Sequence record: PZ787841.1
Strand: one strand, 5' to 3'
DNA: 47,035 nt
Origin: a phage
Below the pieces are notes generated by a model, which worked only from the letters and a program-made list of their open reading frames with translations, had not been told where the DNA came from and ran no database searches. Positions 4,852 to 47,035 of the stretch are shown one piece after another. The first letter of the stretch is position 1. Every line of letters begins with the position of its first letter. A program made the position numbers and the translations under genes.

Positions 4852-5022
4852 TGGTCGATGCCGGATGCGAGTATTGTTTTGCATCCCAACGTATTTTATT
4901 TTTTCTGAATGGCTACATAGGTCTTCGGCGACACGTTAGTGGGTCTTCCGGCAGGCCGTCATTGTCGGCGATAAGAGTCTTTGCTCACACCTTCAGACTG
5001 GACGAGTTGACTGTGTTCTGTA

Positions 5023-5435: not shown

Positions 5436-5460
5436 CTCTAATCTCTCTCTTATTTGTACT

Positions 5461-5821: not shown

Positions 5822-5854
5822 TAATTAATCTCTCAATCTCGATAAGAAAGGGCC

Positions 5855-30338: not shown

Positions 30339-30830
30339 TTAGTCAGGTCCGGGTAGCCGACCCACACGAGACAGTGGAGATAGGCGGTGTACGCCAGCAA
30401 GTCCTCGGTATTCTCTATGTGGCTCATTTGCCTTTAGCGGGTGCAGCAGGCTTTCCGGTGTCTTGCGTTCCACTTCCTGAGGCTGGACTGGACCCTGTGG
30501 ACATCCTACCAACAGAAGCAGGCAGCTGGACTTGAGAAAAGCTTTGATTTCTTCATCATTTTGTCCAAGTTTGCGGAGCAGGGCGCGGATTTCGGTCTGA
30601 CGACGCTCTATGTCGTCTCTTATGCTGTTCAGGTCTTGTATGGACGTATTCAGCTTGGTAAAGTCCTCACGCATGTGTTCCTCGGCACGGTTTGATTGGT
30701 TTCGTTGACTATGTTCAGATGCTGGATGCTTCCGGCCTGTGTGGTGATGACCTCACGTGCCGAATCCAACTGCATACAGGACGATTGAAACCCCCACCGC
30801 TAGCGCGGCGAGGATACCAAGACCTGATAA
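30339..30830 (-). CDS. Spanin: i-spanin (N-terminal TM plus coiled coil) with an embedded lipoprotein-type o-spanin candidate
   Basis: MGAKLKG then LLLSGLGILAALAVGVSIVLYAVGF (TM); coiled coil in ORF 30339..30674; LLLLVGC lipobox-like motif followed by a Pro-rich stretch. Confidence 0.4.
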
Positions 30831-30839
30831 GAGCAGCCC

Positions 30840-31195
30840 TTAAGCTTAGCTCCCATTTCTATCTCCTTGCCGGGGTCTAGGTCTATCCCCAGCTTCTGCT
30901 TAACAAACCGGATGACCGCAAATACAGTGGCCTCCGCACCCAACCACGAAAACACCCCAACGATGACGCCGGACCATACCCAATGAAGACCGGACGCCCG
31001 ACACATTAACAGGGCCACCACGCCGAGAAAGCCAGCACTCAAACCTTCGAGAACCGCACGGCCTACTGTTGCCTGTTCTTTCTTGCCTACTGTGCGCGCA
31101 TCAAATAGCCTAGTCCACCGCCTATCGCGGCAAAAGCCACGAATATAGCGATTTCGACCCACGTTAACGCGGCGGCTAATAGCCCTGTTTTCATT
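30840..31195 (-). CDS. Holin (three predicted TM segments)
   Basis: ATG at 31193-31195 (MKTGLLAAALTWVEIAIFVAFAAIGGGLGYL...); further TM stretches in ORF 30800..31228. Confidence 0.5.
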
Positions 31196-31198
31196 TAT

Positions 31199-31697
31199 AC
31201 GCGCTCCAACAATGCAGGTACTCCGCACTCCTGCGCTTTTTTGAGATAGCCCGCTACCGTACCCTTGCCCGCCGACGTGTTATAGTGCTTTTTCCAGTAC
31301 TCGGCCCGGCCCACGAAGGACGACGGGATGGCACCGGGAGCGCGTGCATACCGCAAACGGCAAAACAGCATCGCAAGCAGCGGGCTGGTTTCCAGTTCTT
31401 GGTACTTGGTCTTGGACAGATCGATGTTGAACGTCTTCAGGACCGCGTCGGCTACCGGGCCTTTGGAATACAGACCCTTCAGCCAGTCGACGTGCCTTCA
31501 TCCACCTGCGTCGATCCCGTGCCTGCACCGTACGGGGTCGGGTCGCGGAGTGTGCCCAGCAGGGTTTCGGCGGCGGCGGTTTCCACGAGCAGGGCAACAG
31601 CTGCCTCTCGTGTAGCCGGGTCGCCGACGACCGCGCAAACCTGCCGGGCGTACATAACCGCGTCTTCTTTACTCTTCAGCCCATAGTACATGGGTTT
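31199..31697 (-). CDS. Hypothetical protein; endolysin candidate by position only
   Basis: ATG at 31695-31697 (MYYGLKSKEDAVMYARQV...); sits between terS and the holin; no catalytic motif recognised. Confidence 0.3.
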
Positions 31698-31703
31698 ACT
31701 CCT

Positions 31704-32253
31704 TTTTGTCGGTGATAGCCGTAGGACACTCTTCTTCGGTCGGCACCTGACCAAAAGTCTTGACGTTGAGGGTCGGACGCACGCCCTTGATACTTAACTC
31801 AGCCTGCTCCTTGAACACATGCCCAGCTGCTTGCCCAGCATCTCAGTGCTTTATTCGCTGCCGCGAGAAGTCGGACTATACTCGCCAGTCGGCTGACCGT
31901 CTTTGTCGAATACAGGGACGGCGTTCATGGCACGCTCTGCCACGTGACGCAGTCGCAACATGACAAACTCAGCACGACACTATCTGCGGGCGTTGATGCT
32001 CTGATGCGGCGTACTTGCTGTACTTGACGACGTTCGGCTTCTTGAGGATGTCGCACGCGGCTACCTTTGCAGCGAGATACGATTCGCAGTTCGGGCGAAT
32101 CAACATATAGGCTGCGGTTGCGTTCCGATAAGGGTCGGCGATGATGGCATCGACCAGCTGAACTTCATGGTCTTCGATGTGAACTCAATCGCTATCGGGT
32201 TGAACCGGGCGCTAGGTGGCGGATTGCTTTTCTTTTGCTTCTGTTTGGTCATG
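31704..32253 (-). CDS. terS: Terminase small subunit
   Basis: ATG at 32251-32253 (MTKQKQKKSNPP...); NATAAYMLIRPN...AAKVAACDILKKPNVVKY after stitching. Confidence 0.5.
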
Positions 32254-32344
32254 ATGGCCCCCGTGTTAGTTCTAAGATTAGACCACGGCGGGCTTGTGCG
32301 GGCAACAGCTTTGTGTTCGAATACACGTGCGGGTTGTACTTTTT

Positions 32345-32374
32345 GCCCACCCCCTTAAAGGTGGGCCTTTTTCC
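32345..32374 (+). terminator. Plus-strand terminator-like hairpin (orientation opposite to all genes)
   Basis: GCCCACC-cccttaaa-GGTGGGC followed by CTTTTTCC on the plus strand. Confidence 0.3.
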
Positions 32375-32447
32375 TACCTCGTCGTCCTGAAGGACGCCAG
32401 CCAACGACTCGCGGCCTCCCGGTCCAGTTTCTCCTTTTCTTTTTTTC

Positions 32448-32912
32448 CTAAGCAGGAAAGCCTGCTGGTCCAGTGCCGCCTTCACGGGCTGGCGGTCGTC
32501 GATTATGCGGCCCGTCGGTGAGGTCTTCATGCTTCAATCCCCCGTCCGATGGCTTCGTCGTAGTCGCGAGAGTCCTGCATTTGAAAAAGAGTTCGTCCGG
32601 GCAGGGCTCCGGGCGCTTCGAGGCCATTCTCGCAGCATAAGCTGCACGGTACGGGCGCATGGCACGCCACCAGTTGTACCCGTGGACGTCGCCCAACAGG
32701 TAGGTTGACACGGCGCACGGGGTGTGCATCGCGTAGGCCAGTACTTCGAGCAGCTCTTCTTCGCGCTCTTTCAGGAAGACCTCGCGGGTGCGGTACTCGC
32801 TGCCGTTTGCGTAGTAGTCTTCCAGCTGGTCGCGGATGTAGGCCAGCATGTCCAGAAGCTCGTTGCGGTTGGTCATGGTGCAGCGGGTAAAGCCAATAAG
32901 TTCGAGTTTCAT
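32448..32912 (-). CDS. Hypothetical protein
   Basis: ORF 32448..32912 (MKLELIGFTRCTMTNRNELLDMLAYIRDQ...), no motif recognised. Confidence 0.3.
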   Translation of the reverse strand: MKLELIGFTRCTMTNRNELLDMLAYIRDQLEDYYANGSEYRTREVFLKEREEELLEVLAYAMHTPCAVSTYLLGDVHGYNWWRAMRPYRAAYAARMASKRPEPCPDELFFKCRTLATTTKPSDGGLKHEDLTDGPHNRRPPAREGGTGPAGFPA

Positions 32913-32928
32913 CTCTTATCTCCGGTGT

Positions 32929-33295
32929 TTAGTGCCCCAACCCTTGACTGTACGATGGATGGGGGTCGGTGTCAATTAGTTTGCAGCGTCCCAGTACTTC
33001 ATGTCGATGACGCCAGCCGCCTGCATCTTCTCCAGCAGGCCATAGGCTGAGTCGCTGCACTGCGGTAGATGTCGTGGTATCCGCACTCGTCGTCGCCGAC
33101 CACCGTCTGGAAGCCACCAGTGAACAGGCGGTAGTGATGCCACACTTTACCGTCGATGCGACGCAGGGCCACACATGCGTTCACGTCGGTGTCCATGCCG
33201 TCCTCGGTCATCACTTCGTGCAGGTCGTCCGAGCGCTCGATGAAGAGTTCAAACAGCGGGGTTTGCTCTGGATAGCCCATAATACCCACTGGCAC
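32929..33295 (-). CDS. Hypothetical protein
   Basis: ORF 32999..33295 (MPVGIMGYPEQTPLFELFIERSDDLHEVMTEDG...). Confidence 0.3.
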
Positions 33296-33338
33296 GGTCT
33301 GGTTCAGGTTGGATAAGGTTCGCGTTCATCTAATCTCC

Positions 33339-33461
33339 TTAGTACGCCACGCCAGAGTGCAGACGGGTTTTCATGTAGCGGGCCACGATAGCCTTCGCTT
33401 GTTCTGCGGTGTCTGCGTCGTAGGTCGCGATGGTCTTGCTGCAAAACTTGAACTTGGTCAT
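33339..33461 (-). CDS. Small protein (40 aa) behind a consensus promoter
   Basis: MTKFKFCSKTIATYDADTAEQAKAIVARYMKTRLHSGVAY; leader CAACCaCCCGGAGATgcAGAGATG resembles the other promoter-proximal leaders. Confidence 0.35.
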   Translation of the reverse strand: MTKFKFCSKTIATYDADTAEQAKAIVARYMKTRLHSGVAY

Positions 33462-33501
33462 CTCTGCATCTCCGGGTGGTTGGGGTCGTGCTGTAATCTT
33501 T

Positions 33502-33563
33502 ATTATACCAAAGCCCCAACTCCCTGTCAATGGTCGATGCACGAGGATGCGACCTTTGTCACA
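33502..33563 (-). promoter_or_regulatory. Consensus sigma70 promoter TTGACA-17-TATAAT (minus strand) with an upstream TGTGA-N6-TCGCA palindrome
   Basis: Plus-strand attata at 33502-33507 and tgtcaa at 33525-33530; palindrome (plus strand tgcgacctttgtcaca) at 33548-33563. Confidence 0.55.
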
Positions 33564-33747
33564 CGAAGCACGGGTTCAAATAGTTGGGATGTGGCACTCG
33601 TCACGCAGCACTCGGAGGTCGGTCTGTGTTCCATCGAGCGGTCGTTCGAGCATAAGAGGAGGGGGACTCGACGGAACGTTCTTTTTATGTGTATCTACAT
33701 AAGCTAATCTTGACAAGATAGGCACTCTCATGCGTTCGGGTCTTTTT

Positions 33748-33962
33748 GTTCCATTGCGTTCCACCATCGTTCCACTATGCCCGGAACAACCCTCCTAAAC
33801 ACGCGCGTAAAAGGGAAACCGCGTCGGTCGCGGACTCTCTCGCCTCGGACGGCAGTTCAGCTATGTCTGTTCCATTGTTCCATCTCCGAATATTAAGTCT
33901 CATATTGTCGGCCGCCGACAGTTTCGATTCTCGCGGACGTAAGAGTGGAACAGGGGAACAGG
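33748..33962. repeat. Iteron-rich element, copy B (same architecture as 9421-9620)
   Basis: tgttccat/cgttccac repeats at 33758-33780; gttccattgttccatc at 33869-33884; palindrome TGTCGGCCGCCGACA at 33906-33920; ggaacaggggaacag at 33947-33961. Confidence 0.7.
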
Positions 33963-33989
33963 CCATCGAGCGCTGCCCATGGCGCTGCT

Positions 33990-34910
33990 ACCCCGGCCCC
34001 AATCCCCCTTTTTAATGTATTCAGCAGACCTGAGACCGTGGTTTTCAGCTGCTGCTCCCGGCGCTTGGCCACAGTGCCGCTTATCGTGTTCCCACAGGCC
34101 ACGACCATGCCCGACAGCTCCAGGACCGACAGGAATTTGTCCTTGCTCTCCATCAGTGCGACCATCAGGCTATCGACCAGCATCACATCACCATCATCCA
34201 CAGGTCGGTCGACCACTACCGCCTGCAGTGCTGCCTTAATCCCCATTCACGGTACTGGCGACTGTGAACTGCTCACGACCAGCTGCGTTTGTCTCTTGCT
34301 CCCGACATCGGTCAGGGAGAGCACGTATTCGTATTCATTTTCGTCTTCTTCACAGTCCCACCCCGTCCATCAGCTCATTAACACCGTCACCTCACGAGCG
34401 CCCATCGGCAGCTCGACCCGATACCAAGCCTTCAGTCCGGTCTTCGCAGTCGAAGCGAGTGCGTCCATTGCCACCCGGTGGTATTCGTTCACCAGAGGAA
34501 CCAGCCACGGGGTCACGCCAGCCAGAGCAGCAATCAGCTGGTTTTCCAGCATCTCGGCACTCAAATCCTGCCCAGCACCCGCAGGTCAGGACAGGCTTCG
34601 CTGCCACGGTTGCTCGAGCTTCCACCCACCAGCACCGACACATCAGCGTATTTTCTCGTATAATCGGTCCCCGCTATCGCAGTTATGGTCCGCACGCCAC
34701 CAGTGCTGCGTACAAGCTCACCACCCACCGCAACCACGTTCCCACAGTCCCGGATAAGCATCTCGGTCAGTCCACGCTCTACATCCACCCCACAACGTCT
34801 GAACGCCTCGACCGTCTTTCCCAACCTCTGTAGCCGTACCAACGACCGTCGACTCGAACCCATCAGCCCAGATGGTGGTTATCTGGAATTTCTGACCTTC
34901 GCCTTTAGTA
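33990..34910 (-). CDS. Cluster of about three small hypothetical ORFs lying between the two halves of repeat copy B
   Basis: Minus ORFs 34561..34863, 34370..34564, 33893..34246; no motif recognised. Confidence 0.3.
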
Positions 34911-34947
34911 TTCATTTTGTTCACCTTTTGCATCCGACAGTTTATTT

Positions 34948-35055
34948 CAGTATTTAGCAAACGAGAAGCTCTCCGTGAACCTCTCGTATTGACCCGCTAC
35001 ATCAGTATTCCCGACCCCCCTCAGGTCAAGGGAAGTACCAGCCGTTTGCACTCTT
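34948..35055. repeat. Conserved ~100-bp element, copy B, directly 3' of the AP2-like gene
   Basis: gcaaacgagaagcTctccgtgaa ... 52 nt ... gaagtaccagccgtttg; internal hairpin ccct-N7-aggg. Confidence 0.6.
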
Positions 35056-35449
35056 GCGTATTCTCCACCACGTCGAGGTTTTCACCCTCTTCTCTGGACT
35101 TCCTCAGGGCGTCGACTACATTAGCCGAGTTTGTACCTTGCTCAGGATTTCGGCCTGAAGGTAGGCCACGTGGGGTTCTGGACAGTCCGACCATCGGATA
35201 CAGCACCACAGACTCGAAGGCCCGCAGGGTATCTTTCAGCCGCTGGTTGGTGCTTTTATTAATCAGGTCACGGAAGGGTGCTGCGGTGCGGTAGGTGGTG
35301 AACAGATGGACGTAGGCACCGACAGACGTCAGTCCACGTGCCACGAAGTAGGTGTTGCGGTCCCCGTGCATCAGGCGGGCCATCCATGTGCCATCGCTGC
35401 GTGCGATATGTACATAGACCTTCGGGGTGTTTTTGGTGTCTTTCATGTT
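35021..35449 (-). CDS. AP2-like DNA-binding domain protein
   Basis: MKDTKNTPKVYVHIARSDGTWMARLMHGDRNTYFVARGL...AYVHLF (W-A-R / YLG-like AP2 pattern); no catalytic domain seen. Confidence 0.35.
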   Translation of the reverse strand, partial: NMKDTKNTPKVYVHIARSDGTWMARLMHGDRNTYFVARGLTSVGAYVHLFTTYRTAAPFRDLINKSTNQRLKDTLRAFESVVLYPMVGLSRTPRGLPSGRNPEQGTNSANVVDALRKSREEGENLDVVENTQECKRLVLPLT

Positions 35450-35494
35450 GTCATCTCTTATCCAGCAGATCCAGCGGCTTGCCGGGGGAAGTTT

Positions 35495-35542
35495 AGTATA
35501 GCACACTTCCCCCAACCTGCTAACCTATGAACAACGTTGTTT
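35495..35542 (-). promoter_or_regulatory. Sigma70 promoter TTAGCA-17-(TGc)TATACT (minus strand) with upstream perfect palindrome AACAACGTTGTT
   Basis: Plus-strand agtata at 35495-35500 and tgctaa at 35518-35523; aacaacgttgtt at 35531-35542. Confidence 0.45.
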
Positions 35543-35622
35543 GGCGTGCTTATACGTTTCCTTATATAAGGATCGCCGGCTGTGTGCCAGTCGTGCCAGG
35601 TCCACCTGTACGACACCGAGGG

Positions 35623-35898
35623 TCAGGCAGCATGAACTGTGGGTTCGTCGCCGGGCGCTACACCCGTGCCATCCCTCGATACAGGCCAGCGGCTGTATAC
35701 CAGTACAATCCCGGCGGGGAGCAGCCATTCACGGTGCGCGATTCGCCCGACGTTCGGACCGAGCAGGTTCGCCCGGTACAATGCAGCACATACATCGGAA
35801 TCGAGGAAGACGGCGAGAAGCAGGGCGATAGCCACGCCAAAAGCGACCTCCCACGTGGTCAGCGCCGCGATTTGCAGCATCAGGTTGTTCGATAACAT
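35623..35898 (-). CDS. Small membrane protein
   Basis: MLSNNLMLQIAALTTWEVAFGVAIALLLAVFL... (C-terminal part of ORF 35623..36180). Confidence 0.3.
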   Translation of the reverse strand: MLSNNLMLQIAALTTWEVAFGVAIALLLAVFLDSDVCAALYRANLLGPNVGRIAHREWLLPAGIVLVYSRWPVSRDGTGVAPGDEPTVHAA

Positions 35899-35920
35899 TC
35901 TCCGGTTTGGGTTTTTGGTA

Positions 35921-36382
35921 CTACGCCCCAGCATAACACGGGGCGCACTGACTAGCAAGCTTGACCATAAGACAAAAGGCACTGACCTTTTTCGGTTCGG
36001 CCTCTTTCGTAGCCTCGCGCCGGGCTTCTTCGGCCTGCTGGCGGATTCGATCGATGCGGGCCTCGGCACGTTTTGCCTTGCGCACGGCCTTGTCCTTCTC
36101 ATTGGTACAGTGAAGGCAGATAAACCGGACGTGACGCCAGACCCGTGGGCCTCCACAGTGCCGGCAGATGGTCTTGTCACGTTTTATGCGCAGGTAAATC
36201 CCGTGCTGGTGGGCGTACATCCGCAGCGCCGGAACCGAGCGATCAAGTGCCGCCGCCATTTCCGCAGCGGTCTTTATTCCCGCACCCGCTACAATGTAGC
36301 TCGTGTTCCCGCTGGGTCCCATCTTCCCCTGCCAGCGGCCCTTTATGGTCCTGTTGTGACGCGGTGCTTTCGAGGTCATCAA
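35921..36382 (-). CDS. Zinc-finger protein, possible DNA-binding regulator
   Basis: Intact 153-aa ORF; CRHCGG...CLHCTNE cysteine pairs followed by a basic, helical tail. Confidence 0.35.
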   Translation of the reverse strand: MMTSKAPRHNRTIKGRWQGKMGPSGNTSYIVAGAGIKTAAEMAAALDRSVPALRMYAHQHGIYLRIKRDKTICRHCGGPRVWRHVRFICLHCTNEKDKAVRKAKRAEARIDRIRQQAEEARREATKEAEPKKVSAFCLMVKLASQCAPCYAGA

Positions 36383-36580
36383 GCAAGTCCCCCATCGGGT
36401 TCTGGATTATGAAGTCCGGCGACGAGGTCTTCTTTGCTGTAGTGCTTAATTTGTGATACAGCCGCGATCGATGCAGGAGACACTGCCTCCATGACACCAT
36501 TCACGTTCACTATGTACGCCGCCCCGTGAACTGGGCTATCTTCAGCGCCCTGTCCATCGAGTTTTCGGTATCGTCGGTTT

Positions 36581-37211
36581 TCAGTTGGTCCACTTGGTAT
36601 CTCCATAAAAGACCAGCCGTTGCTGACTGATGAAATCACACCACCAGACCAGAATGTAGCCGATGAAGTAGGCGGCCGGTTCATCATTCGTCACATCGTG
36701 CTCGATGTCATAGTTCTGGTAGATGTAGTTCACTGCGTGGTAGGCTTCATGGGCCATGCTCGCAGGTTCCTGTCCGGTCCCACAGCGCACCAGCATGAAG
36801 ACGCAGTAGAAGTTAGCGCCCGATAATCGTAGACGCGGCCCCCGGACACCGGACCCATATCCTGAAGCCCGAAGTATGGACCAGCTCCTGCAAATCGTCG
36901 GTATGGACGAAGACCAGCTGGGCCGGGTAAACACCCGCCTGTATCAGGGCGTTGTGGTCCCCGACCCATTCTTTCAGTTCTTCAAAGTTCTTGGCATAAG
37001 CAAAAAGGCGGTTGCCCGCCTCCTCCGGTTTACACGATTTCCGCGTGTTTCGCTTTCTTCGAGATCGACAGGAACGTCTCCATGTCGATATGAACCAGTC
37101 AGCGTTCGCCAGCTTCGGCGGCGGCGCATCTTCCGGCGGTCGGTACATGGTGGCCTCGATCGACCAGGCCGAATTCCAGCGAGAGGTTGATGTACGGCTT
37201 GTTGTGCCCAT
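36581..37211 (-). CDS. HExxH-motif protein (possible zinc metallopeptidase, SprT/ImmA-like)
   Basis: MAHEAYHAV in ORF 36581..36934; upstream part in ORF 36813..37211 in another frame. Confidence 0.25.
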
Positions 37212-37860
37212 CGTTCGGTAGGTTGGTCTTCACCAGCACCGACTCGTCGCGGGCCAGTAGCTCCATCACCTGTTCCAGTCGCTCGGTGTACCCCTGCAGC
37301 TCCAGTTTTTCGTCGCAGGTGTCAGGTAGCGGCGGGTCACGTCATCCAGCACGCCTTCGCGGTCATTCTGGTCAGCCATCTTTCTTCTCCATCAGTTCAT
37401 ACCATACCACATAAGGCCACACTACGATCGCAATAAGGGTGGCGATTGCGAAGGCCCACACTGGCGCGTAGCGCTTGTTGATGACGTCATCCAGTACCGC
37501 CAGCGCCGCCACGAACAGACCAACCCACAGATACCACAGAATCAGCCATGCATCTTCGTCTTCCTCTTCTTCCTGCGTGTCGTAGTCTTGGACAGGTCGG
37601 CGGTCACTACCGGGCGTTCATGGTAGCGGCGGTCGGTCGGGCTTGACAACTCGGCACCCATGAAACGGGCGACCGTGCCGTCTTCCCGGCGCACGTCGTA
37701 GGTGTAGCTGTCGAACATTGGGTGGAAGGTGGCGGCAGCGATAAGCCCCAGCCCGGTGATGGCGGCGTCGGCAGACGACCTGTAAACCACCTTCGTGCCC
37801 ACCGGGTACTTCGGCTTCTTTGCGGTCTTGCGACGGAAGTCTGGCACTTTCTTTTTCATC

Positions 37861-38521
37861 TCAACGTCTCTTGGTCAGTGTAGCCAGTTGCGCCTTAAGC
37901 GGCGCTTTGATGGCTTCGGTCACCGCCACCCGGCCCAGATAGGTCGGCTGGATAGAGCTCGACTCAACGTTCTTTTGTGGGGTGTTCCAGTAGGGCATCG
38001 TCTCCCAGCTGTAGACCCAGCCTTCGAGGTCGCAGGTGATGATGTTCGCCTCGTTGGACACATTATACCATGCCTTCCCCGCGAGTTCAACCCCGTCCCA
38101 CAAATACGGGCTACGCTGCCCGATCACCTGGTCTTTTTCGCAGGCTGTCGGCGAACTGCTTTGCCTTTGCCTGCTCGGTCAGGTGGGCAATAATAAGGCC
38201 GATAAACGTCAACAGACCCCCGCATATCGCCATCGTCGCCAGCATGGCTATCCCGGTTAGTACCTTCTCCATTCGTCGCGCTCCTGTAGTCAGTACGGAT
38301 ATCACACGGCTGTCGGCGCGTGGAAACCACAGGAAATGGTCCTCCTGCGTCTTCAAGTTCCACACCGTCAGCAGCACGTCATACACGCCACGGTAGCCGA
38401 CCTCACGGGCATAGTAGACACCATCTGGCACCTTCTCGTCGTTCTTCACTTCGATGTAATGGTCGGTCAGTTCGGGCCAGTCATGCACCCTTGGCATATG
38501 CAGATAAAAGAACTCCGGCAT
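37861..38521 (-). CDS. Hypothetical protein with a central transmembrane segment
   Basis: ORF 38111..38521 (TGIAMLATMAICGGLLTFIGLIIAHL), continuing in ORF 37861..38127. Confidence 0.3.
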
Positions 38522-38880
38522 GAGCAGGGAGGCACCTGCGTCTCTTCACGCTCCGACTTCGCCAGCGCGATATGCAGGTCGAAATATTCCGCCACTTCGT
38601 CATCGCGGCGCTCAATTGCCCGCACCTGCTTGCGCATTGTCTTCATTGCGCGGCGGTTGGACCGCCACCAGCTATGTTTTTTCATACGTCATCCCATCTC
38701 TTGGCTGCACTGAATTTCGGGGTTTCTGCCCGTGCCACTCGTCCCAAGATGTAGTCCGGGCGGCGGGCGTCTGGTTGTGGACAGATGGCGAGGATACGCC
38801 AGCCTTTGTCCAGAGACCTCTGGATGAGGTCTGTACAAGCATCTTCACACAGCATAAGCTCATTCATTGCCATCAGTCCC

Positions 38881-39381
38881 TCACCGGGCTGGCGGGAGTT
38901 GGTGACGGTATTCGAACATCATGCGACTAGCCCGGCCCAGCTGGTCGATGACCTTCTCGTTCAGCTTAATCAGGCTTTCCATGAAGAGAATGCCCGATTG
39001 CTCCGGTTGCGCGGCGGGTGGCACCACGTCCACGGTCCGGGACTTCCGCACATGCACCTCGATACCGAGGTCCAGCAGGTTCATATACTCGGTATCCTGA
39101 ATCTCCGCGTCGAAGTCGCGGTAGTACGGGTACTGCTCCAGCAGTGAGGCCAGCTTCGTGTGGTCCTGCGTCAGCTCCTGCCAGCTGTTCTGGCGGTTGT
39201 CCTCACCCACCGCGTATTTGGCTGGTGGGTAGTAGCGGAACCCAAAAGGCGGGTCACGCCGGGCGTCCTCGGTCGGCAGCACTCGCAGCTCCGGGTGAAG
39301 CTCTGCCATCTTCTGCTGGGCCGGGGTCAGCTTGTCAGCGTACCCCATAGCCACGTTGACGTCAATCAGCCGGACTTTCAC
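38881..39381 (-). CDS. Hypothetical protein
   Basis: Intact 166-aa ORF MKVRLIDVNVAMGYADKLTPAQQ... Confidence 0.35.
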   Translation of the reverse strand: MKVRLIDVNVAMGYADKLTPAQQKMAELHPELRVLPTEDARRDPPFGFRYYPPAKYAVGEDNRQNSWQELTQDHTKLASLLEQYPYYRDFDAEIQDTEYMNLLDLGIEVHVRKSRTVDVVPPAAQPEQSGILFMESLIKLNEKVIDQLGRASRMMFEYRHQLPPAR

Positions 39382-39635
39382 TTATCACCACCTACATTGT
39401 TGGAAGTTGATGATGGTGATGTGCTGCGGTTTGGGCGCTTTCGACGAAGGCCCAGATGAAGGCACCGACCCAACCCAGCAAGGTCCAGCCCAACAGCAGA
39501 TCGAGGAAGAATACCGCCAGTTTGTTGTGATGCCCGTTCAGGCACGCCGCGATAGTCGGCAGGAAGTACGAGCAGATGATGACGATAAGGGTGGCTGGAG
39601 GAGTCATGATTGTTTCCTCTCTTTCATGGGTTAGG

Positions 39636-40020
39636 TCAGGCCGACTTTTTGGTGCGCTTGGCATATGACCCGCGCGGTTTGTCGGATACACGGCACTCGT
39701 TCCCGGCGTAGTTGAAGCCGTCGTCCTCGCGGAACTCGGCCCGGCCCGGATGTCGTACTCTTTGATGTTGGTAGATGGCACGGGTTGACGTGCTCACGGG
39801 CGCGGCGAGTGGCACCGAACTCGGTGGACTCACCGTAGTGGTTGCGGTTGCAGGTCGGGCAGTTGATGTCGGGATGACGGCGTTGTGGAAGTGTGCATCA
39901 TGGTAGCCGTCCTTCAGCGTGGCGGTGGCGCCGCACGAGTCACAAATAAGGGTGGCGGTGAAGTCGTTCCCGTGCTGGTGGGTGATGGTCTGGACTTTTC
40001 TCTGTATCTCCGGGTGGTGC
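39636..40020 (-). CDS. Zinc-ribbon protein
   Basis: CDSCGAT...CPTCNRNHYGE after stitching; GGAGA RBS before the start. Confidence 0.3.
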
Positions 40021-40035
40021 TGGGTTTATTAGCCT

Positions 40036-40200
40036 TTATACTGGATTGCGGTGCCGTCGAAGTAGATACACATAACCATAGCACCCTTGCGCAGCAGAAC
40101 TGAACCGAGGTCGGTTCTCGAACTCGGTCCAACCCTGCGCGGTCGCTTTTGCCACCGATACTGCCTGCTGGTTAGTTGCTTTCATCTCTAAATCTCCGGT
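40036..40200 (-). CDS. Small protein behind promoter b
   Basis: CAACCGGAGAtTTAGAGATG leader, MKATNQQAVSVAKATAQGWTEFENRP... Confidence 0.3.
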   Translation of the reverse strand, partial: TGDLEMKATNQQAVSVAKATAQGWTEFENRPRFSSAAQGCYGYVYLLRRHRNPV

Positions 40201-40228
40201 TGGTGCTTTGTGCTGCTTCTGAATTTTT

Positions 40229-40300
40229 ACTATACCATAGGGTTGGGGTGTTGTCAATCCCCCAACTTATCTCTATGTAGAAGATGTGACACGCATCACA
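40229..40300 (-). promoter_or_regulatory. Consensus sigma70 promoter TTGACA-17-TATAGT (minus strand) with an upstream TGTGA-N6-TCACA palindrome
   Basis: Plus-strand actata at 40229-40234 and tgtcaa at 40252-40257; palindrome tgtgacacgcatcaca at 40285-40300. Confidence 0.55.
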
Positions 40301-40809
40301 CTCTTAGTGTCCGACCCATATCTTGTCGGTGAACCGCAGCACCGGGACATACAACGACTTGTCGAGGCTTTTGAGTCTGCACGAGGGCATCAGGTTCGGA
40401 CTCCCACACAAACGGCACGTTGTCATCGTAGCCTAGGGCCGGGTCATGCACCACCGGGGTGAAGTCGCGGCAGTCGACCACCAGCGCGTGGAACTCCACC
40501 TTTGACCGCGAAGACCAGATAGATGTTCCCGGTTTCCAGCCAGTGGCCCGCTGCGATGTCCACGGTCGCCGTTCGGATCGACAGGAGACTGGCACAGGCT
40601 TTCAGGTTCGCCGACCGGGTGTACAGGTCGTGGATATTGGTATAAAGCTCTTCCGTGATATCAATATCGGACATCATGAGCAAGCAGGCGGTCACGCAGG
40701 ACCGACGGGTGGCTTGTAGGACTTCGCGGATGGGTTTCATATACATTGCCTTTAGAAGAGAACGATTCGGCGGGTATTGTTGCCCCCGCCGTCGAACAAA
40801 AGATGGGTA

Positions 40810-41665
40810 CTATGGGAGGCGGCCGACGACTTCCAGCACCTTGCACACGGCATCAGAAGACCCGGAGATGGTCGTCGTCTGCTCCGGTGACACCGTCGAA
40901 TAGGTCAGGTAGTCATCGCCGACCACTTCGCCGACCTGCGGCACGCAGTCGATGCCCACCCCGCCGTGGTACACTTCGCTGTGAACGCTGACACCACGCA
41001 TCATGTCGCCGAAGTCGGTGTCACCCGCCACCGTGTCCGCGAAGGTATCGGCACCGTGCAGTCGGTCGATGACCCCCTGCTTCTGGTCGATGGTCATCTC
41101 GTGCAGGCGGACTGTATCCCGTAGGGTATGATTGGCCTGTTGCGCCTCTTCCAGCGCCTCCATCAGGTAGGAACTGCTGCTTGGCCTTCGCCACATCTTC
41201 GTGTGCGTCTGCTATCTCGGCACGCAGACGGGCCACGATACCATCGGCGTGCTTCAGCGGTGACGCGTCTGCAACCACGGCTTCCGGTTCACGCAGGCCA
41301 TCGAACATGCCGGAGATGTCCATGCCGAGCGCCTGCAGGATCACCAGCACCGACATAGCCGAGACTACATCCCGCAGGCCCACGTAGTAGTGGAAGCGCA
41401 CAATCATCTCTGACACGTAGACGTCGGCCTTGTCCAGTTCGCGGGCTTCGATGATGTCCACCGAGTCGCCAAAACGCTGGTTCAGGTACACGATAGCCTG
41501 CCCCACCTTCGGGCTTTCCATCTTGCCGTCCGGTCCTTCCACCTTGACCGGGGTCGCGGTCACCCACGGTGGCTGCTGGTTCACCTGCGGCGGTTGCGGC
41601 ACGTTCGGGGTTTTCTCGCCCACTACTGGACGGCGGCGTTTCATTGGTTCGGTCATTTTACTCAC
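40810..41665 (-). CDS. Hypothetical protein (about 280 aa)
   Basis: ORFs 41021..41665 and 40810..41196 in two frames; no motif recognised. Confidence 0.35.
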
Positions 41666-41863
41666 CTAAAGCTTGCGGATTTTTACTAGCCCATGATGCG
41701 GTGGTCAGGGGCAGGGAGTGCACACGGCCTTTCTTGTCGTCGTGGAAGGCCGCGAAGTCGGTGTCGAGCGGGTTGCGGATACGACGACCAACTTGACATT
41801 GGTGTGCAGGCCGCGAGACTGGTACACAGACCAGATACCCGGAGATGTGGCGCGGATAAGCTA

Positions 41864-41981
41864 CCATAAGACCCCCGCCAGCAGGATCACTGCCAATACT
41901 ACCGCGAAGCCGTACCATGTTGCGCGGCCTGCTTCACGTGCTGGGTTCTCGGTGGTGTACTCGAACAGTGTATTTGTTCAT
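41864..41981 (-). CDS. Small membrane peptide behind promoter c
   Basis: CAACCCGGAGATgaAGAGATG leader, MNKYTV... then WYGFAVVLAVILLAGVLW after a frame break. Confidence 0.3.
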
Positions 41982-42022
41982 CTCTTCATCTCCGGGTTGG
42001 TGGGGGCTTTGCCCCTGAATTT

Positions 42023-42083
42023 AGTATAACATAGGGGTTGGGGCGCGTAATATTTGGTATGCGAAGATGTGACCTATGTCACA
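42023..42083 (-). promoter_or_regulatory. Extended -10 promoter TGtTATACT (minus strand) with an upstream perfect TGTGA-N6-TCACA palindrome
   Basis: Plus-strand agtata at 42023-42028; palindrome tgtgacctatgtcaca at 42068-42083, centred near -60. Confidence 0.5.
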
Positions 42084-42501
42084 GTTTACCCCGCTGCACT
42101 GCCTCCTTCTCGCGTCTGGTCATCATGGTTTTTACCCTAATGGTGGTGTCGATGACCTGCTCGTTGTAAAGCAGGTCCATCCACTGGATGATCGGGCCAT
42201 GTCGCCCTCGAACTTCTGCGACTGAATCTGCCAGTAGGTGACGTGGGGTAGTACATCACCGTCCGGGTCAGGTTGAAGCGCACACTGCGCATTTTCGGGT
42301 CGATTTCGAACTCACAACCCTTGAACTGCCGCCGCTGTCGTCCATCTGCTGGACCAGAGCGGAGGCAATGCCCATAACTGGGCTTGTGTTGTTTTCAGCT
42401 TGGCAGTCATTAGTATTCCACCTTAGGCAGGGATTCCATTTCATAGCGGCGCATAGCGCCACGCAGCACGTTTCCGAGGTTCATGCGTTGCATTCCGGGG
42501 T

Positions 42502-43348
42502 TCAGATGCCGTAGCGGTTCTGCAGGTCGGAGAGGCTGCAGGTTGTTTTCTTGTTGCCAGTCCCCACGTGGTCGATGCCCAGCACTCGCAGCACTTCGGC
42601 GGTGTAGCGGTAGACGTCGGAGATATCCATGCCGCGCAGAGCAGACGCCACGTAGTCCACGATGTAGATGGTCTTGCGCCCGGTAGTAGTGACGCCCAGC
42701 CCGACCGTGTAGCGGTCCATGTCCGGGTCAACCTTGTAGTTGCCGTTGAAGTCCACGCCCCAGTCGCACGCTTCGCAGTTGCAGACGGTGCTTTCGTGTT
42801 CCAGCACTCCGTCCGGGTTCACCTTGCCGAATACCAAGTCTTTGCTGTTGACGCTCGGGCAGGCTTTGAGGGCGAACAGATTAGCGCGGGTGATGCGCGG
42901 TGCTTTGGTCACGCGTTCGATGCGCTCGGCTTCTTTGCGCTCGGCTACACGTTCCATCACTTCGCGGCCTTTCGCGTTGCCACGGTTCATCAGCATAGCC
43001 GCCATGCCGGATGGCTTGCGCGGGGTTTCGTCGTGCTCTTCGGCGATATGCTCTGCCAGCGATTCGGCGCTCAGGAACTCGCAATCGCACTTCTCGCACA
43101 GGTGGGTGTTGTCGAGGTTGAAGGATACCTCGGGTGATTCTTGTCGCCAGCGGCGGACAGGGTTTCGATGGCTTGGTCGAAGCCAACTTCAGCGAGAGCT
43201 TCGAGCGCGGCTACGGTCGCCGGGTCGCTGTCTACTTTGCCAGAACGGATTTTGCGGGTTGCACCATTTTCGTCGGTATAGGTCACCCAACCGTTATTGA
43301 TGCTCGCGCGACTTGCACTAATTTGCCGTCTACGATAGCCTTGCTCAT
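42502..43348 (-). CDS. Zinc-finger protein (about 280 aa), candidate early regulator
   Basis: AGGAGA RBS and ATG at 43346-43348 (MSKAIVDGKLVQVARASI...); HLCEKCDCEF...EHIAEEH and CNCEACDWG motifs; ORFs 43071..43286 and 42502..43005. Confidence 0.4.
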
Positions 43349-43396
43349 TGTGTATCTCCTAATCTCTCATTGCCGGGGGCGTTGCCCCGAATCTTA

Positions 43397-43461
43397 AGTA
43401 TAACATAGAGTTGGGATTTGCGCCAAGCATCGACATAATCGAGAGTGTGACCTTTGTCACG
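43397..43461 (-). promoter_or_regulatory. Sigma70 promoter TTGGCG-18-(TGt)TATACT (minus strand) with an upstream TGTGA-N6-TCACg site
   Basis: Plus-strand agtata at 43397-43402; tgtgacctttgtcacg at 43446-43461; leader hairpin GGGGC-gtt-GCCCC at 43375-43388. Confidence 0.45.
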
Positions 43462-43755
43462 GAACGGCACCATAAAGGCCGTAGAAATGGCAGGCTAACA
43501 GCACATGTATCCGGCACTGGGTGTCATGCCGCAGGAGTGGCAGCACGTGATACAACGTCGTGCCTTTCCCGTTTATGGACGGAGTATACCAGCGGTTCAT
43601 GTGTTTCCACGCGTCCCGTATATCAGCCAGCTCGTTCCCGATATCGTCCGGTATACCCTTGTAGTAGTCGAGGAAGTCATCGACCGCCACATGGTGGGCC
43701 ATCTCCGCCGTGCTGGTCTTTGCAATGAAATTCCCGTCTTTCGACGGGATGAGGA

Positions 43756-44169
43756 TCATACCCTCGCTAACAAACCGAATAGCCATTCGCGTTTAACCTC
43801 TTCGCTGAAGGAGTGGCGGACGGCGTCCAAGTCCATCGTGGTCGGTCTTGATGGAAGGGTCCACGCCAGCGTGCCCTCGATGGCATACCATCCGACACTC
43901 CGACTTCTACAAACAGCCAGACATTGCCCGCCATCCCGTGGCGGCGAAGCCATGAACGTTGGCCCTGCGAAGTGGGTCAGGTCCAGTCGGCCCTTGTCGT
44001 CCAGCTCCCCAGCCTTCATCTCGATAAACCCGTGTTTTGTGCCATAGGTGAAGCACAGGTCAGGGAATGATGGCGCGGTGGCTGGCGACTCGATGCGGTC
44101 GTATGCCACGTTCATGTGCCGAAGGACCGGGCGAAGCTGGTCCCACATTTTCTGCTCCGGTTTACGCAT
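43756..44169 (-). CDS. VRR-NUC-type (PD-(D/E)xK) nuclease
   Basis: FPDLCFTYGTKHGFIEMKAGE in ORF 43756..44214. Confidence 0.45.
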   Translation of the reverse strand: MRKPEQKMWDQLRPVLRHMNVAYDRIESPATAPSFPDLCFTYGTKHGFIEMKAGELDDKGRLDLTHFAGPTFMASPPRDGGQCLAVCRSRSVGWYAIEGTLAWTLPSRPTTMDLDAVRHSFSEEVKREWLFGLLARV

Positions 44170-44171
44170 TT

Positions 44172-44743
44172 TCAGCACCCAAATAGTCGATGCGACCAAG
44201 GTAGTGGTCGGCACTCAGGGTCAGACAGCTCGTTCCACAGGGCCATCGCCGCCGACTTCCAGAGCGGTGATACATGGTCGAGGTACTGGATGAAACGCTG
44301 GTTCAGCCCGTGTAGCTGGTCGCGGGCGTAGCTACCTTCCCCATGCTCCATCAGCCAGTACAGCGCCTCGATGAAATCGGCGATTCGACACATACCTTGA
44401 TCGGGCCTTTGGTGTCGATTGACCGATAGTAGCCATCGCCTGCAGTCGCTTCCAGAGCTTCGAGTTTTGCCTTTGCGCCGAGGTACTGCTTGGTCGGCGT
44501 GTTGATGTCGCCAGTGAAGACTTCCGGCGCATCGTGCCACAAGGCCATGACCGCCACGCGACCCAGCTCCACGTCGGTGGCGGCTTCGCCGGGGTTCCCA
44601 CCAGTGCGGCGTAGCCACAGGTCCATCGCCAGCATAGCCACGGCCCATGAGTGTTGCGCCACGTTCTGTGGACGGGTGGTCGGCACTATCTGCCAGCGGT
44701 TTACATACTGTGCGCGCATCAGGTCGCGGGGGGTCATATTCAT
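44172..44743 (-). CDS. datZ: HD-domain phosphohydrolase, DatZ-like dATP hydrolase candidate
   Basis: HD motif QHSWAVAML...LWHDAPEVFTGD in ORF 44351..44743; small size; sits beside the PurA-homologue and MazG-like genes. Confidence 0.6.
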
Positions 44744-44854
44744 CTTGTTATACCTTCTTCGAGTTGTGTTGTGACAGATAGTGCCGTTTGCGGGCGTCCT
44801 GCGAGGAGAACCGTCTACCGCAGACTACACAGAGATATTTCTCTATCGGTATGT

Positions 44855-45660
44855 TCAGCGGCTGCTGGACCACTCCGACACTCTGGCTACCACACTGATG
44901 CCCTTATGAACCACCGGGGCGACACCTCGAGTGCGACCGCCATCAATCACATGTTGATGCGTGCCGTCTTCCAGCTTCTCCCACACCCGTTTCTCATTCA
45001 TTGCCATCTTGTTGGCTACGGCCTTGGCGATATCGATCCCGGCTAGGTGTCCGATGTCGAGCAGCAGGATAGCCACATCAGCGAATTCCCCGGCGTCGAG
45101 GTATTTGCTGGTGTCCAGCTCGGTTAATTCCTTCTTCAGCTTCAGCACTGCTTCGCCGATGGTGCGCTCGGGGAACGTGCGGTCGGCCCAGCCGGAAATC
45201 AGCTGTTGGACTTCGGCGATTGTTCCGGTTGAGTATTGGCGAGTCGCTCGCGTCTGTCCATCTTGTAGCGCTTTCTCAGGCACTGGTTGCACACGTAGTC
45301 CGACTTCGCCAGACGGCTGGGGCTGAATGTCACGTCCGACTGCAGGCACACGCGGCACACGGGCGGTCCAGCGGCGGTCATCTTGGTCTGGTCGGTTTTC
45401 GGCAATCCATCGGATAAACATAAGTCCACTTGCGGCGTGCGCGGCGTGGTGGAGGTCGGTTTCATGGTAATCGTTGCTCTTCTCTAATTCCAGTATGCGA
45501 CGCTCACTCCATCCAGAAGGCGCTCGACTGTCAGCCCGCGCCAGTTTCATTTCCCGTATTTTGCCTCACCCGTCGCCAGTACCCGCGCCACCTCCTCGGT
45601 GAAGCGCGGGTCAATCAGGCTAACGGGGCTTTGTCGGCATCGAGTTTCGATTGCTTTCAT
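44855..45660 (-). CDS. mazZ: MazG-like nucleotide pyrophosphohydrolase, MazZ candidate; an N-terminal KYG..NW region and an internal CxxC...CxxC segment may belong to it
   Basis: C-terminal GEAVLKLKKELTEL...GEFADVAILLLDIGHLAGIDI...NKMAMNEKR (ORF 44855..45550); ATG at 45658-45660; zinc-ribbon segment in ORF 45199..45465 in another frame. Confidence 0.5.
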
Positions 45661-45673
45661 CGCCCCTGCTCCT

Positions 45674-46781
45674 TATTCCTGCTCGTGTTTCATGTCGGTG
45701 AAGATGTCGTTCACGGTCGCGCCGTAGCCGTAGTATGTAGCCAGCGGCATATTGCCCGGAATCCCGGCGACCATTGCGGCACGTTCGATGGTTCCCACCA
45801 CTCAGCCACTTCGTCCGGCGTCATGTAGTTGGAGAAGTTGAGGAATACTCATCCGGGCGAATCGACTTCGAGCGCCGCCAGCGTCTGCAGGTAGCCGAAG
45901 GTGAAGATGCGGCGCGGGAGCTTGGTCACGGTGGTCAGTTCCGCTTCCATTCCGAGGTCTTTCTTCCAGTCCAGTTCCTTCTGGTCTTCGTAGTACGGGC
46001 CGGACCAATTTGCTCACCTGCTCGTTGTTGTAGCGGTTGGCTACGCGGATTGGGTAGGTGCGCATCGTGGCGATCGTGGTCTCGACGAAGGCCAGCGGCA
46101 GGTTGACGTCGACACAGACCTGTGCCGGGGTGCACTCGCGGGAGGTCGCATACGGGTAGAAGCCGTTGTTGATGCCGAGGCTGAGTCCCTGCGCACCCTC
46201 CACCGAATGCGTTCCGCGTCGTAGACTACCGACATATACTCGGCGTTGTTGGCGGTGCTGGTGGAGATGCCCGCTTCACGGATTGGCTTGCTTGTAGATG
46301 TGCTCTTCCATGTAGTCGGCGTTTCCGCCTACCGTGTTGTTGTCGTCCGGGTTGCGCGATGGATTTGGAAATCATCGCAGCACCGCAGCCTTTCTTGGTA
46401 GACCCGATTTTGGTCATCGGGCCTGCTTCCTCTTCCACGTGCTTCTGCATGATAATAGCAGCGGAGGAGTGTAGCATGATGCGTTTGCCGCGCAGCAGGT
46501 CCACACAGGACAGGATTTCGTCGCGCAGCAGTTCGACGTTCATCTGGCTACCGGGGCCAATCGGCACGGTGGTTAGCTTCGGCGATACGATGCCGTTTGC
46601 CAGCATGCAGTGGACAAGCTTGCGGCCTTCTGCATCGATGAGGTGTGGCCTGCGTTGGCACTCCACGCGGTCATCACTACGTCCGGCTGGTCGCGCGGGG
46701 CGACGTAGCCCGCAATGAGACCCTTGCCAGTGCTGCCAACTGCGCGTCAACGATGATAGTGGCTTTTTGTGTTGCTTTCAT
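45674..46781 (-). CDS. purZ: Adenylosuccinate-synthetase homologue, PurZ candidate (N6-succino-2-amino-2'-deoxyadenylate synthase)
   Basis: ATG at 46779-46781; P-loop-like GSTGKG, ANAGHT (GHNAGHT-like), LVHCMLANGIVSP, FEGAQGLSLGINNGFYPYATS (ORF 45802..46203); stop TAA at 45674-45676. Confidence 0.7.
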
Positions 46782-47035
46782 TTTATTGCTCCTGTGCATT
46801 TGCACGTTGTTTTAAGTTTAGGGTTGTACTGCGGTACTGCGTGTTCTCGGAGTGGGATGTCGTCGTCGAAGTCCATCGGCGGTTCGCTGCTCTGGTTCGA
46901 CGGGTTGTTGCCCCATCCACCTTGCTGCTGGTTCTGCTGCGGCTGCTGGTTGGCACCCAGCTGGCGCGGACCCTGTGCACGGGCCTGTGTGTTCTGGCGG
47001 GTGTTGGCACCGGGGCCGTCTTTCGGTTCTACCGA
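46778..47035 (-). CDS. ssb: Single-stranded DNA-binding protein, C-terminal part only (gene starts beyond the window end)
   Basis: Gln/Gly/Pro-rich tail ending PPMDFDDDIP, characteristic of the bacterial-type SSB C-terminal tip. Confidence 0.6.
   Translation of the reverse strand, partial: SVEPKDGPGANTRQNTQARAQGPRQLGANQQPQQNQQQGGWGNNPSNQSSEPPMDFDDDIPLREHAVPQYNPKLKTTCKCTGAIK

Follow-up and report, generated by a model that had tools for sequence, protein, structure and literature searches.

The 47,035-nucleotide sequence PZ787841.1 (the window, by which we mean the whole stretch of DNA analysed) is a phage genome that carries a purZ-mazZ-datZ module on its minus strand, and with it a predicted pathway for replacing adenine (A) with 2-aminoadenine (Z). 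An earlier note on this DNA had placed three adjacent minus-strand genes here, and they are found within 46781-44162. We established the identity and order of these genes, their signature residues, and the clade to which the PurZ belongs. It is highly probable that the phage is a virulent-type siphovirus of the lineage of Salmonella phage PMBT28 and Acinetobacter phage SH-Ab 15497, with a full PurZ-type Z cluster in one tightly packed minus-strand block and the Z-base mechanism that goes with it, and Z-DNA, with A replaced by 2-aminoadenine, is very likely in this phage. The reading of the three genes as a Z-genome module is supported by the grouping of the PurZ, the matches of its two companions to MazZ and DatZ of cyanophage S-2L, a neighbouring DpoZ-type polymerase and the behaviour of the equivalent PMBT28 cassette, from which we infer the A-to-Z replacement itself.

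Reconstruction of the module genes

The open reading frame (ORF) listing for 42-47 kb contains no long ORF for purZ, mazZ or datZ, only overlapping fragments in different frames; the longest ORF in the whole 47 kb encodes 523 amino acids. Searching with PMBT28 proteins using tblastn split each module gene over two or three frames. Genes were stitched with a custom frameshift-aware protein-to-DNA alignment to the PMBT28 proteins and their ends were then read off the DNA, so that the purZ, mazZ and datZ proteins described here exist only after stitching; their matches to Pfam families and to the PMBT28 orthologues are far above chance level. Stitched against their PMBT28 orthologues, 31 genes spanning 32.3 kb contain 167 frameshifts (5.2 per kb) and 8 in-frame stops. 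There are 10 frameshifts in the large terminase gene terL (6.8 per kb), 13 in the portal gene (8.8 per kb), 12 in the tape measure gene (5.1 per kb) and 3 in the major capsid gene. The three-gene module has 11 in 2.6 kb (4.2 per kb) when aligned to PMBT28.

The closest relative found is a 2,487 bp Logan contig (SRR10874818_64931, L020), with 91% nucleotide identity over ssb, purZ and the 5′ part of mazZ. We aligned it to the window at 45000-47035 and 1-400, which covers the junction of the window ends. The alignment brought to light another two frameshifts, which compensate each other, close to the 5′ end of mazZ, bringing the module to 13 frame-changing indels (5.0 per kb) and 2 in-frame stops. 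Compared with this contig, the window indels are one base long, involve all four bases and for the most part lie outside homopolymers; over the whole record all four bases are again affected, with about half of the indels outside homopolymers. A search of 5.8 billion proteins identified the contig's purZ as intact, encoding 367 amino acids with 91% identity to the window PurZ. The frameshifts are sequencing or assembly errors of the record and not pseudogenisation, because their density is the same in the terminase, the portal and every other gene tested, and because a relative with a 91% identical PurZ has an intact purZ. The contig is the best available template for error correction of the window in the ssb-purZ-mazZ region. 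An automatic gene caller run on this record would break up nearly every gene and would miss or split the three of the module, so that too few Z clusters will be reported from noisy long-read assemblies.

The PurA homologue is a PurZ

The purZ gene (46781-45673, minus strand) encodes a homologue of PurA, predicted to be an N6-succino-2-amino-2′-deoxyadenylate synthase, of ~369 amino acids after stitching. It starts at the ATG at 46781, with AGGAG 8 nucleotides upstream, and stops at 45675-45673. The alignment to PMBT28 runs from 46781 to a last aligned codon at 45682, with 79% identity, 7 frameshifts (all frame-changing indels) and one in-frame stop (45851-45849). In Pfam, the stitched protein matches PF00709 (E = 1.9e-24). 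Its best matches among all PDB chains are the PurZ of Vibrio phage phiVC8 (6FKO, E = 1.1e-69) and S-2L PurZ (7ODX, E = 7e-64), both aligned over the full length, followed by archaeal PurA (~1e-18), 7VF6 (4.8e-13) and E. coli PurA (~5e-11). The structure 7VF6 is the PurZ0 of Gordonia phage Archimedes (PMC12884076).

Two of the three sequence motifs named beforehand were confirmed by reading the DNA directly: the P-loop GSTGKG at 46737-46720, and ANAGHT at 46659-46642, in which His46 is the equivalent of the PurA catalytic His41 (both minus strand). The third, given as FEGAQG, is the form carried by E. coli PurA; the window reads VEGAQG (46203-46186, minus strand), with Gln200 at the position of PurA Gln224. 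Ser17 of the P-loop (codon AGC, 46734-46732) aligns with the catalytic Asp13 of E. coli PurA, and the P-loop is GSTGKG in PurZ, GSEAKG in PurZ0 and GDEGKG in PurA. This Asp13-to-Ser change is present in 100% of 147 phage PurZ/PurZ0 sequences (PMC12884076).

An alignment of the window, PMBT28, SH-Ab 15497, phiVC8 and S-2L PurZ proteins with E. coli PurA shows that PurA Arg303 is replaced by Leu291 and PurA Asp333 by Asn321 in the window. Arg303 of PurA contacts the ribose 2′-OH. The earlier note would have given up its reading had the protein grouped with cellular PurA and retained every PurA catalytic residue; Asp13, Arg303 and Asp333 are all lost. The catalytic residues in common with PurA are kept, namely K20, N43, H46, T129, R144, Q200, T289 and R293 (K16, N38, H41, T129, R143, Q224, T301 and R305 in E. 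coli numbering). Substrate contacts in S-2L PurZ are made by S23, T273 and Q308 (PMC8342488), and these are matched by Ser17, Thr286 and Asn321 of the window, the last being Asn as in phiVC8 (N297) where S-2L has Gln.

The proposed comparison against PurZ and PurA came out on the side of PurZ, both by the PDB E-values above and by phylogeny. We built a neighbour-joining tree of 11 sequences, rooted on E. coli PurA as the single outgroup, with each of 100 bootstrap replicates re-rooted. The window protein falls within the PurZ clade in 99/100 replicates, within a PMBT28-like group in 100/100, and as sister to SH-Ab 15497 in 100/100, while PurZ0 forms a separate clade (100/100). Across 50,697 phage records searched with tblastn, PurZ-type matches reach E ≤ 1e-42, and PurZ0 phages lie at 1e-10 to 1e-18 with 27-30% identity; at least 104 records have a PurZ-type match at E ≤ 1e-10, and 2,616 database proteins match the window PurZ at E ≤ 1e-20. 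Judged by these comparisons, the window PurA homologue groups with PurZ, and not with PurZ0 or cellular PurA.

The pyrophosphohydrolase is a MazZ-domain fusion

The mazZ gene (45660-44748, minus strand; stop 44750-44748) encodes a pyrophosphohydrolase of ~304 amino acids after stitching. Its alignment to PMBT28 extends from 45660 to a last aligned codon at 44751, with 67% identity, 2 frameshifts and one in-frame stop (45549-45547); after comparison with the Logan contig, its frame-changing indels number 4. The gene had been described as MazG-type. The MazZ domain is present, but the product is not a plain MazG: it comprises a DUF5664 N-terminal domain (about 45630-45368; PF18909, E = 1.3e-15), a DUF550/MazZ-1 all-alpha nucleoside triphosphate pyrophosphohydrolase domain (45232-44948; PF04447, E = 7e-07) and a C2H2 zinc-finger tail with a CxxC...H...H pattern, YLCVVCGRRFSSQDARKRHYLSQH (44837-44766; zf-C2H2, E = 0.004, below the Pfam cut-off), all on the minus strand.

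The best PDB match of the DUF550 domain is S-2L MazZ (7ODY, E = 8.7e-14). In S-2L MazZ, the metal ligands are E35, E38, E50 and D53, the guanine determinants are I56 and D60, and R83 is a further residue of note (PMC8342488); all are conserved in the window, as E178, E181, E192, D195, I198, D202 and R225. The full product matches phrog_801, dATP/dGTP pyrophosphohydrolase, in PHROGs (E = 2.6e-48). Unlike S-2L MazZ, it is not a stand-alone single domain, its architecture being that of SH-Ab 15497 and PMBT28. The DUF5664-DUF550 fusion is the form found in SH-Ab 15497, for which hydrolysis of both dGTP and dATP has been reported (PMC12884076, citing Zhou 2021). From these residues and orthologues, the window mazZ product is predicted to hydrolyse dGTP. 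The C2H2 tail occurs only in PMBT28, Pseudomonas phage PSA28, an IMG/VR sequence (L009) and the window, and is lacking from SH-Ab 15497 and from 11 further related loci. The window finger is separated from the catalytic domains by a frameshift at ~44874, so that its fusion to them cannot be proven here.

The HD hydrolase is a probable DatZ

The datZ-like gene (44743-44162, minus strand) encodes an HD hydrolase of 193 amino acids after stitching, a predicted dATP triphosphohydrolase. It starts at the ATG at 44743 and stops at 44164-44162, overlapping the ATG of the next gene at 44169. The module had been given a lower boundary of 44172, which is the stop of a wrong-frame ORF that arises from the frameshift at ~44219; the true stop is the one given here. 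The alignment to PMBT28 extends from 44746 to a last aligned codon at 44165, with 71% identity, no in-frame stops and 2 frameshifts, which are frame-changing indels at ~44385 and ~44219.

Pfam places the stitched protein in PF12917 (YfbR-like, E = 5.9e-19), and it is 29% identical to S-2L DatZ and 27% identical to YfbR. In S-2L DatZ, W20 excludes the 2′-OH, I22 excludes the purine 2-amino group and P79 is likewise a selectivity residue, with R19, K81 and K116 binding phosphate alongside the HD metal ligands (PMC8065100). The window protein conserves R16, W17, I19, H31, H70, D71, E74, P83, K85 and D123, of which W17, I19 and P83 match S-2L W20, I22 and P79, R16 and K85 match R19 and K81, and H31, H70, D71, E74 and D123 are the HD metal ligands; where S-2L has I22, E. 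coli YfbR has Leu. In 16/16 related loci of sufficient length, a datZ homologue closely follows purZ, and mazZ in those loci that have it. Of the proposal that this small HD hydrolase is a DatZ, the best structural match (S-2L DatZ, 6ZPA, E = 5.7e-12) and the selectivity residues hold, and separation from YfbR by score does not. We assign it as a probable DatZ by its residues and synteny and not by its score, as sequence alone cannot separate DatZ from YfbR.

Replication genes and gene order around the module

Directly upstream of purZ lie ssb, a phiVC8-type dpoZ and a helicase gene. The window holds a whole genome in circularly permuted form, and ssb runs across the window ends, with the C-terminal part at 47035-46850 and the N-terminal part at 167-1 (minus strand), located using tblastn with the PMBT28 ‘DNA-binding protein’ and by the Logan contig, which runs across the junction.

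The dpoZ gene (2103-248, minus strand; 622 amino acids stitched, with 7 frameshifts and one in-frame stop) encodes a phiVC8-type family-A DNA polymerase with a 3′-5′ exonuclease, 82% identical to that of PMBT28. Against the PDB, it matches phiVC8 DpoZ over its full length (7PBK, E = 8.2e-150), compared with E = 1.7e-36 for Klenow. In an alignment from which Pol I was left out, it is collinear with phiVC8 DpoZ through 349-353, 442-448 and 473-491, the three characteristic insertion regions, and it has the exonuclease residues D16, E18 and D75 and the motif C residues HD; both the insertions and the catalytic residues are as described in PMC8599892. Adjacent to dpoZ is a UvrD/PcrA-type helicase gene (3580-2106, minus strand; 77% identity to PMBT28, 13 frameshifts), whose PMBT28 orthologue is the ‘helicase’ of a six-gene dZ expression set (PMC12944874).

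The order helicase-dpoZ-ssb-purZ-mazZ-datZ is identical in the window, PMBT28, PSA28 and SH-Ab 15497. More widely, the 16 related loci that are long enough for this comparison all have neighbouring PurZ and DatZ matches in the same order; 15 of them have a DUF550 match in between, the exception being phiVC8 with its divergent MazZ-2.

Downstream, and overlapping the datZ stop by 8 nucleotides at its start, is a small PD-(D/E)xK-like gene (44169-43759, minus strand; ~137 amino acids, motif PDL...IEMK, phrog_2165). Homologues identified with phmmer, both downstream of datZ, are gp42 of SH-Ab 15497 (E = 4.7e-13), which is directly adjacent to it, and p23 of phiVC8 (E = 2.7e-05), which is one small ORF further away. 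The gene may be one more that is conserved alongside the Z cluster; we found no mention of it in the Z-cluster literature.

Proposed pathway and alternative explanations

The activities of the window enzymes, their reliance on PurB and kinases of the host, and the degree to which Z takes the place of A are projected from characterised orthologues. By this analogy, the DUF5664-DUF550 enzyme would convert dGTP to dGMP, and probably also dATP to dAMP. PurZ would then join dGMP and aspartate into N6-succino-2-amino-dAMP, drawing phosphate from ATP or dATP; from this product host PurB would remove fumarate to yield dZMP, and host kinases would raise dZMP to dZTP. DatZ would destroy dATP, releasing dA and triphosphate, and DpoZ would prefer dZTP, placing it opposite T. 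The expected outcome is virion DNA in which 2-aminoadenine substitutes for adenine and which resists many restriction enzymes.

The strongest functional support, although indirect and by analogy, comes from the PMBT28 cassette. In E. coli plasmids, PMBT28 purZ-mazZ-datZ gave ~20% dZ, and addition of helicase-dpoZ-ssb raised this to ~50-60% (PMC12944874; bioRxiv 10.1101/2025.10.22.683976). PMBT28 PurZ is counted among the previously characterised PurZs in the latter study (bioRxiv 10.1101/2025.10.22.683976).

A number of points weigh against Z-DNA in this phage. A sequence by itself is no proof of Z in virion DNA, and none of purZ, mazZ and datZ is an intact ORF as deposited. The DatZ scores in the PDB are nearly tied, with the S-2L DatZ match extending over residues 7-151 and E. 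coli YfbR matching residues 8-92 at E = 1.4e-11, and the equivalent of DatZ K116 falls on the ~44385 frameshift, where the DNA reads GTC-GA-ATC against V-K-I in PMBT28. In the literature, we found no direct base-composition measurement of PMBT28 virion DNA, and the heterologous PMBT28 system gave partial substitution only (PMC12944874). Genes for PurB, guanylate kinase and NDK were not found in the Pfam scan of the accessory region, leaving the later steps to the host, which fits the proposed host dependence.

These points bear on three other explanations. The cluster could be real and substitution partial, with mixed A/Z DNA being packaged, for example through incomplete selectivity of DatZ or DpoZ or because the host dATP pool wins. 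The PMBT28 genes in E. coli gave 9-61% dZ and never 100% (PMC12944874), and membership of the HD hydrolase in DatZ is not fully resolved; however, a plasmid copied by host polymerases in growing cells is a poor guide to phage replication by DpoZ, the window has the complete six-gene set, and characterised phages with PurZ, DatZ and DpoZ are described as fully substituted (PMC12884076). We regard partial substitution as improbable. Far less probable still is that the module is a decayed remnant, with real frameshifts and stops, pseudogenes and ordinary adenine. A 2.6 kb stretch that holds 13 frame-changing indels and 2 in-frame stops would fit decay, but the indispensable genes are broken at equal density, as the terminase, portal, tape measure and overall rates given above demonstrate, and a phage with every gene broken cannot exist. 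Moreover, between the indels the protein is conserved as in a functional gene, with 79% identity to PMBT28 and every catalytic residue kept.

We give just as little credence to the idea that these are ordinary nucleotide-metabolism genes without base replacement, namely a PurA for AMP, a MazG for house-cleaning or ppGpp hydrolysis and a YfbR-type dNMP nucleotidase. The Pfam labels say only ‘adenylosuccinate synthetase’ and ‘YfbR-like’, and the YfbR score nearly equals the DatZ score. Set against this are the change of PurA Asp13 to Ser together with the loss of Arg303 and Asp333, the nesting of the protein within PurZ in 99/100 bootstraps, the conserved guanine determinants of MazZ, and an adjacent polymerase of the DpoZ type. 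Replacement of adenine by Z is the preferred explanation.

Comparison with known Z systems

PMBT28 resembles the window in whole-genome collinearity, in the order of the six genes and in the architecture of MazZ, including the C2H2 tail, with stitched identities of 79% for PurZ, 67% for MazZ, 71% for DatZ and 82% for DpoZ. It differs in that many window accessory genes at ~33-42 kb have no PMBT28 counterpart, in a far stricter purge of GATC (2 sites, compared with 55 in the window), and in that the window record is full of indel errors. SH-Ab 15497, whose Z cluster was described by Zhou et al. 2021 in Science (as cited in PMC12884076), has the same order of helicase, PolA, ssb, purZ, DUF5664-DUF550 gene and HD hydrolase, is the sister lineage in the PurZ tree, and has the same small gene downstream of the HD hydrolase. 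Its PurZ is only 55% identical to that of the window, its pyrophosphohydrolase carries a longer, different C-terminal extension with no C2H2 finger, and it differs in its host and in G+C content (48% compared with 57.5% in the window).

Cyanophage S-2L shares the purZ, mazZ, datZ order, and the signature residues of its three enzymes are conserved in the window, with the DatZ K116 column falling on a frameshift (PMC8342488, PMC8065100). In contrast to the window, S-2L MazZ is a stand-alone domain of ~105 amino acids, the S-2L proteins are 29-40% identical to those of the window, and replication is by a non-selective PrimPol with no DpoZ (PMC8065100). For phiVC8, PurZ and DpoZ are the best or near-best matches among solved structures and DatZ lies near purZ, whereas the genome is of podovirus type, PurZ is 42-43% identical, and a divergent MazZ-2 replaces DUF550, no DUF550 match being found there. 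The PurZ0 systems of Arthrobacter, Gordonia and Microbacterium phages likewise have a PurA-derived synthetase with Ser for the catalytic Asp and a dZ-DNA product (PMC12884076). They are set apart from the window PurZ by their separate clade (100/100), the P-loop GSEAKG and the low identity (27-30%, E = 1e-10 to 1e-18), and their pools are controlled by DutZ/DmtZ and not by DatZ/MazZ (PMC12884076).

The occurrence of a Z module in a phage of this kind had been singled out as the point of interest. The lineage of PMBT28, PSA28, Klebsiella phages VLCpiS6a and K21lambda1, and Kokobel2 is, however, already known to carry the Z cluster, which has been exploited experimentally. The window adds one enterobacterial-type siphovirus to the phages with PurZ, DatZ, MazZ and DpoZ, and understanding of the pathway is unchanged. 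Its uses lie in cataloguing, and in host-range and phage-therapy work, since Z-DNA resists many restriction enzymes. The window is also another source of Z-cluster enzymes, which may express well in E. coli.

Possible sequence footprints of Z-DNA

Hexamer palindromes composed only of G and C are strongly depleted in the window, with 22 observed and 145 expected (observed/expected ratio, O/E, 0.15). Among these, CCCGGG occurs 0 times (35 expected), CCGCGG 0 (23), GGGCCC 0 (16) and GGCGCC 1 (16). The O/E is 0.71 for A/T-containing palindromes and 1.05 for G/C-only non-palindromes. Elsewhere, the O/E of G/C-only hexamer palindromes is 0.19 in PMBT28, 0.35 in phiVC8, 0.39 in SH-Ab 15497 and 1.00 in S-2L, and non-Z controls purge them too (N15, 0.42; Pseudomonas phage 73, 0.37). 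With purging in non-Z phages and none in S-2L, this depletion is suggestive of Z and not diagnostic.

The site GATC is present 55 times in the window against 210 expected (26%), with the 2 sites of PMBT28 comparing with 4 in phiVC8 and 0 in 10.5 kb of PSA28. The Logan contig has 3 against 12 expected, a relaxed level like that of the window, which may reflect a host or restriction pressure differing from that on PMBT28. We rejected the GATC purge as specific to Z, as the non-Z Pseudomonas phage 73 lacks the site altogether (76 expected, 0 observed).

The indels of the record were also considered as a footprint. At the 167 frameshift sites, about half of which lie in homopolymer context, the inferred deletions are T 32, A 27, C 24 and G 21.5, and the inferred insertions are C 23.5, T 16, G 15.5 and A 8. 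Deletions are thus 57% A/T, compared with a genome A+T content of 42.5%, but this excess lies within the bias of the method, because unambiguous calls fall mostly at codon positions 1 and 2, which are expected to be A/T-richer. Relative to the Logan contig, 7/8 single-base deletions are A or T, a sample too small to interpret. The indel spectrum was rejected as a Z footprint, there being no convincing A/T bias. Nanopore accuracy on native dZ-DNA is reported to drop on all four bases (PMC13128860, relaying Zhou 2021), and the base-unspecific indel noise of the record is compatible with such errors. We raise, as a speculation more likely wrong than right, that ~0.5% single-base indel noise, from native long-read sequencing of dZ-DNA, and the palindrome purge, from selection on the one class of restriction sites left unprotected by Z, might be two indirect footprints of Z-DNA not so far used as diagnostics. 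Should both hold in a large set of genomes, an assembly by itself would be enough to flag a Z genome.

Genome organisation and relatives

Every identified gene of the window is on the minus strand, and the gene order is collinear with PMBT28 (MG641885). In a megablast search, the region 44000-47035 matched three phages at 75-80% identity, PSA28, PMBT28 and VLCpiS6a, which are annotated at the matching place as ‘adenylosuccinate synthetase / nucleotide pyrophosphohydrolase / hydrolase’. None of the phage records searched was closer to the window than ~77% at the nucleotide level; an exact 42-mer of it is absent from IMG/VR, and an exact 231-amino-acid ORF is absent from the gene-position index. 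Compared with PMBT28, nucleotide identity is ~75% over ~68% of the 25-kb structural region. The phage is a new species- or genus-level member of the lineage, at roughly genus-level distance from PMBT28.

The earlier note had called the phage lambda-like, a description that its gene content does not support. The window encodes its own primase (phrog_21866, E = 3e-205), an SF2 helicase, the UvrD-type helicase, SSB and PolA, which does not match replication through O/P-type initiators that recruit the host replisome. No integrase or CI/Cro-type repressor was found in the Pfam scan of 75 accessory-region ORF fragments, the sensitivity of which is lowered by ORF fragmentation; the rest of the genome is collinear with the structural and replication genes of PMBT28. 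Features of a lambda-type tail are present in the tape measure gene (20625-18285) and the gene for a 1,066-amino-acid J-like protein (16703-13546), whose PSA28 orthologue is annotated ‘host specificity protein J’. A tape measure with a J-like tip protein is generic and common to many unrelated siphoviruses, and the phage is PMBT28-like and not lambdoid.

The same Pfam scan, covering minus-strand fragments at 30342-44214 and 3660-5824, identified a superinfection-immunity protein (PF14373, 2e-16), a Pam3 gp34-like protein (3 fragments, 3e-23), a gp33-like protein and a LydA-type holin. About 20 PMBT28 accessory genes have no counterpart in the window. A promoter and terminator scan of 43-47 kb gave matches only at chance level, and no tRNAs were found. 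The coding strand has an AT skew of +0.139 (A > T). A base-composition artefact was considered as its cause and rejected, as PMBT28 has the same skew (+0.124), making it a trait of the lineage.

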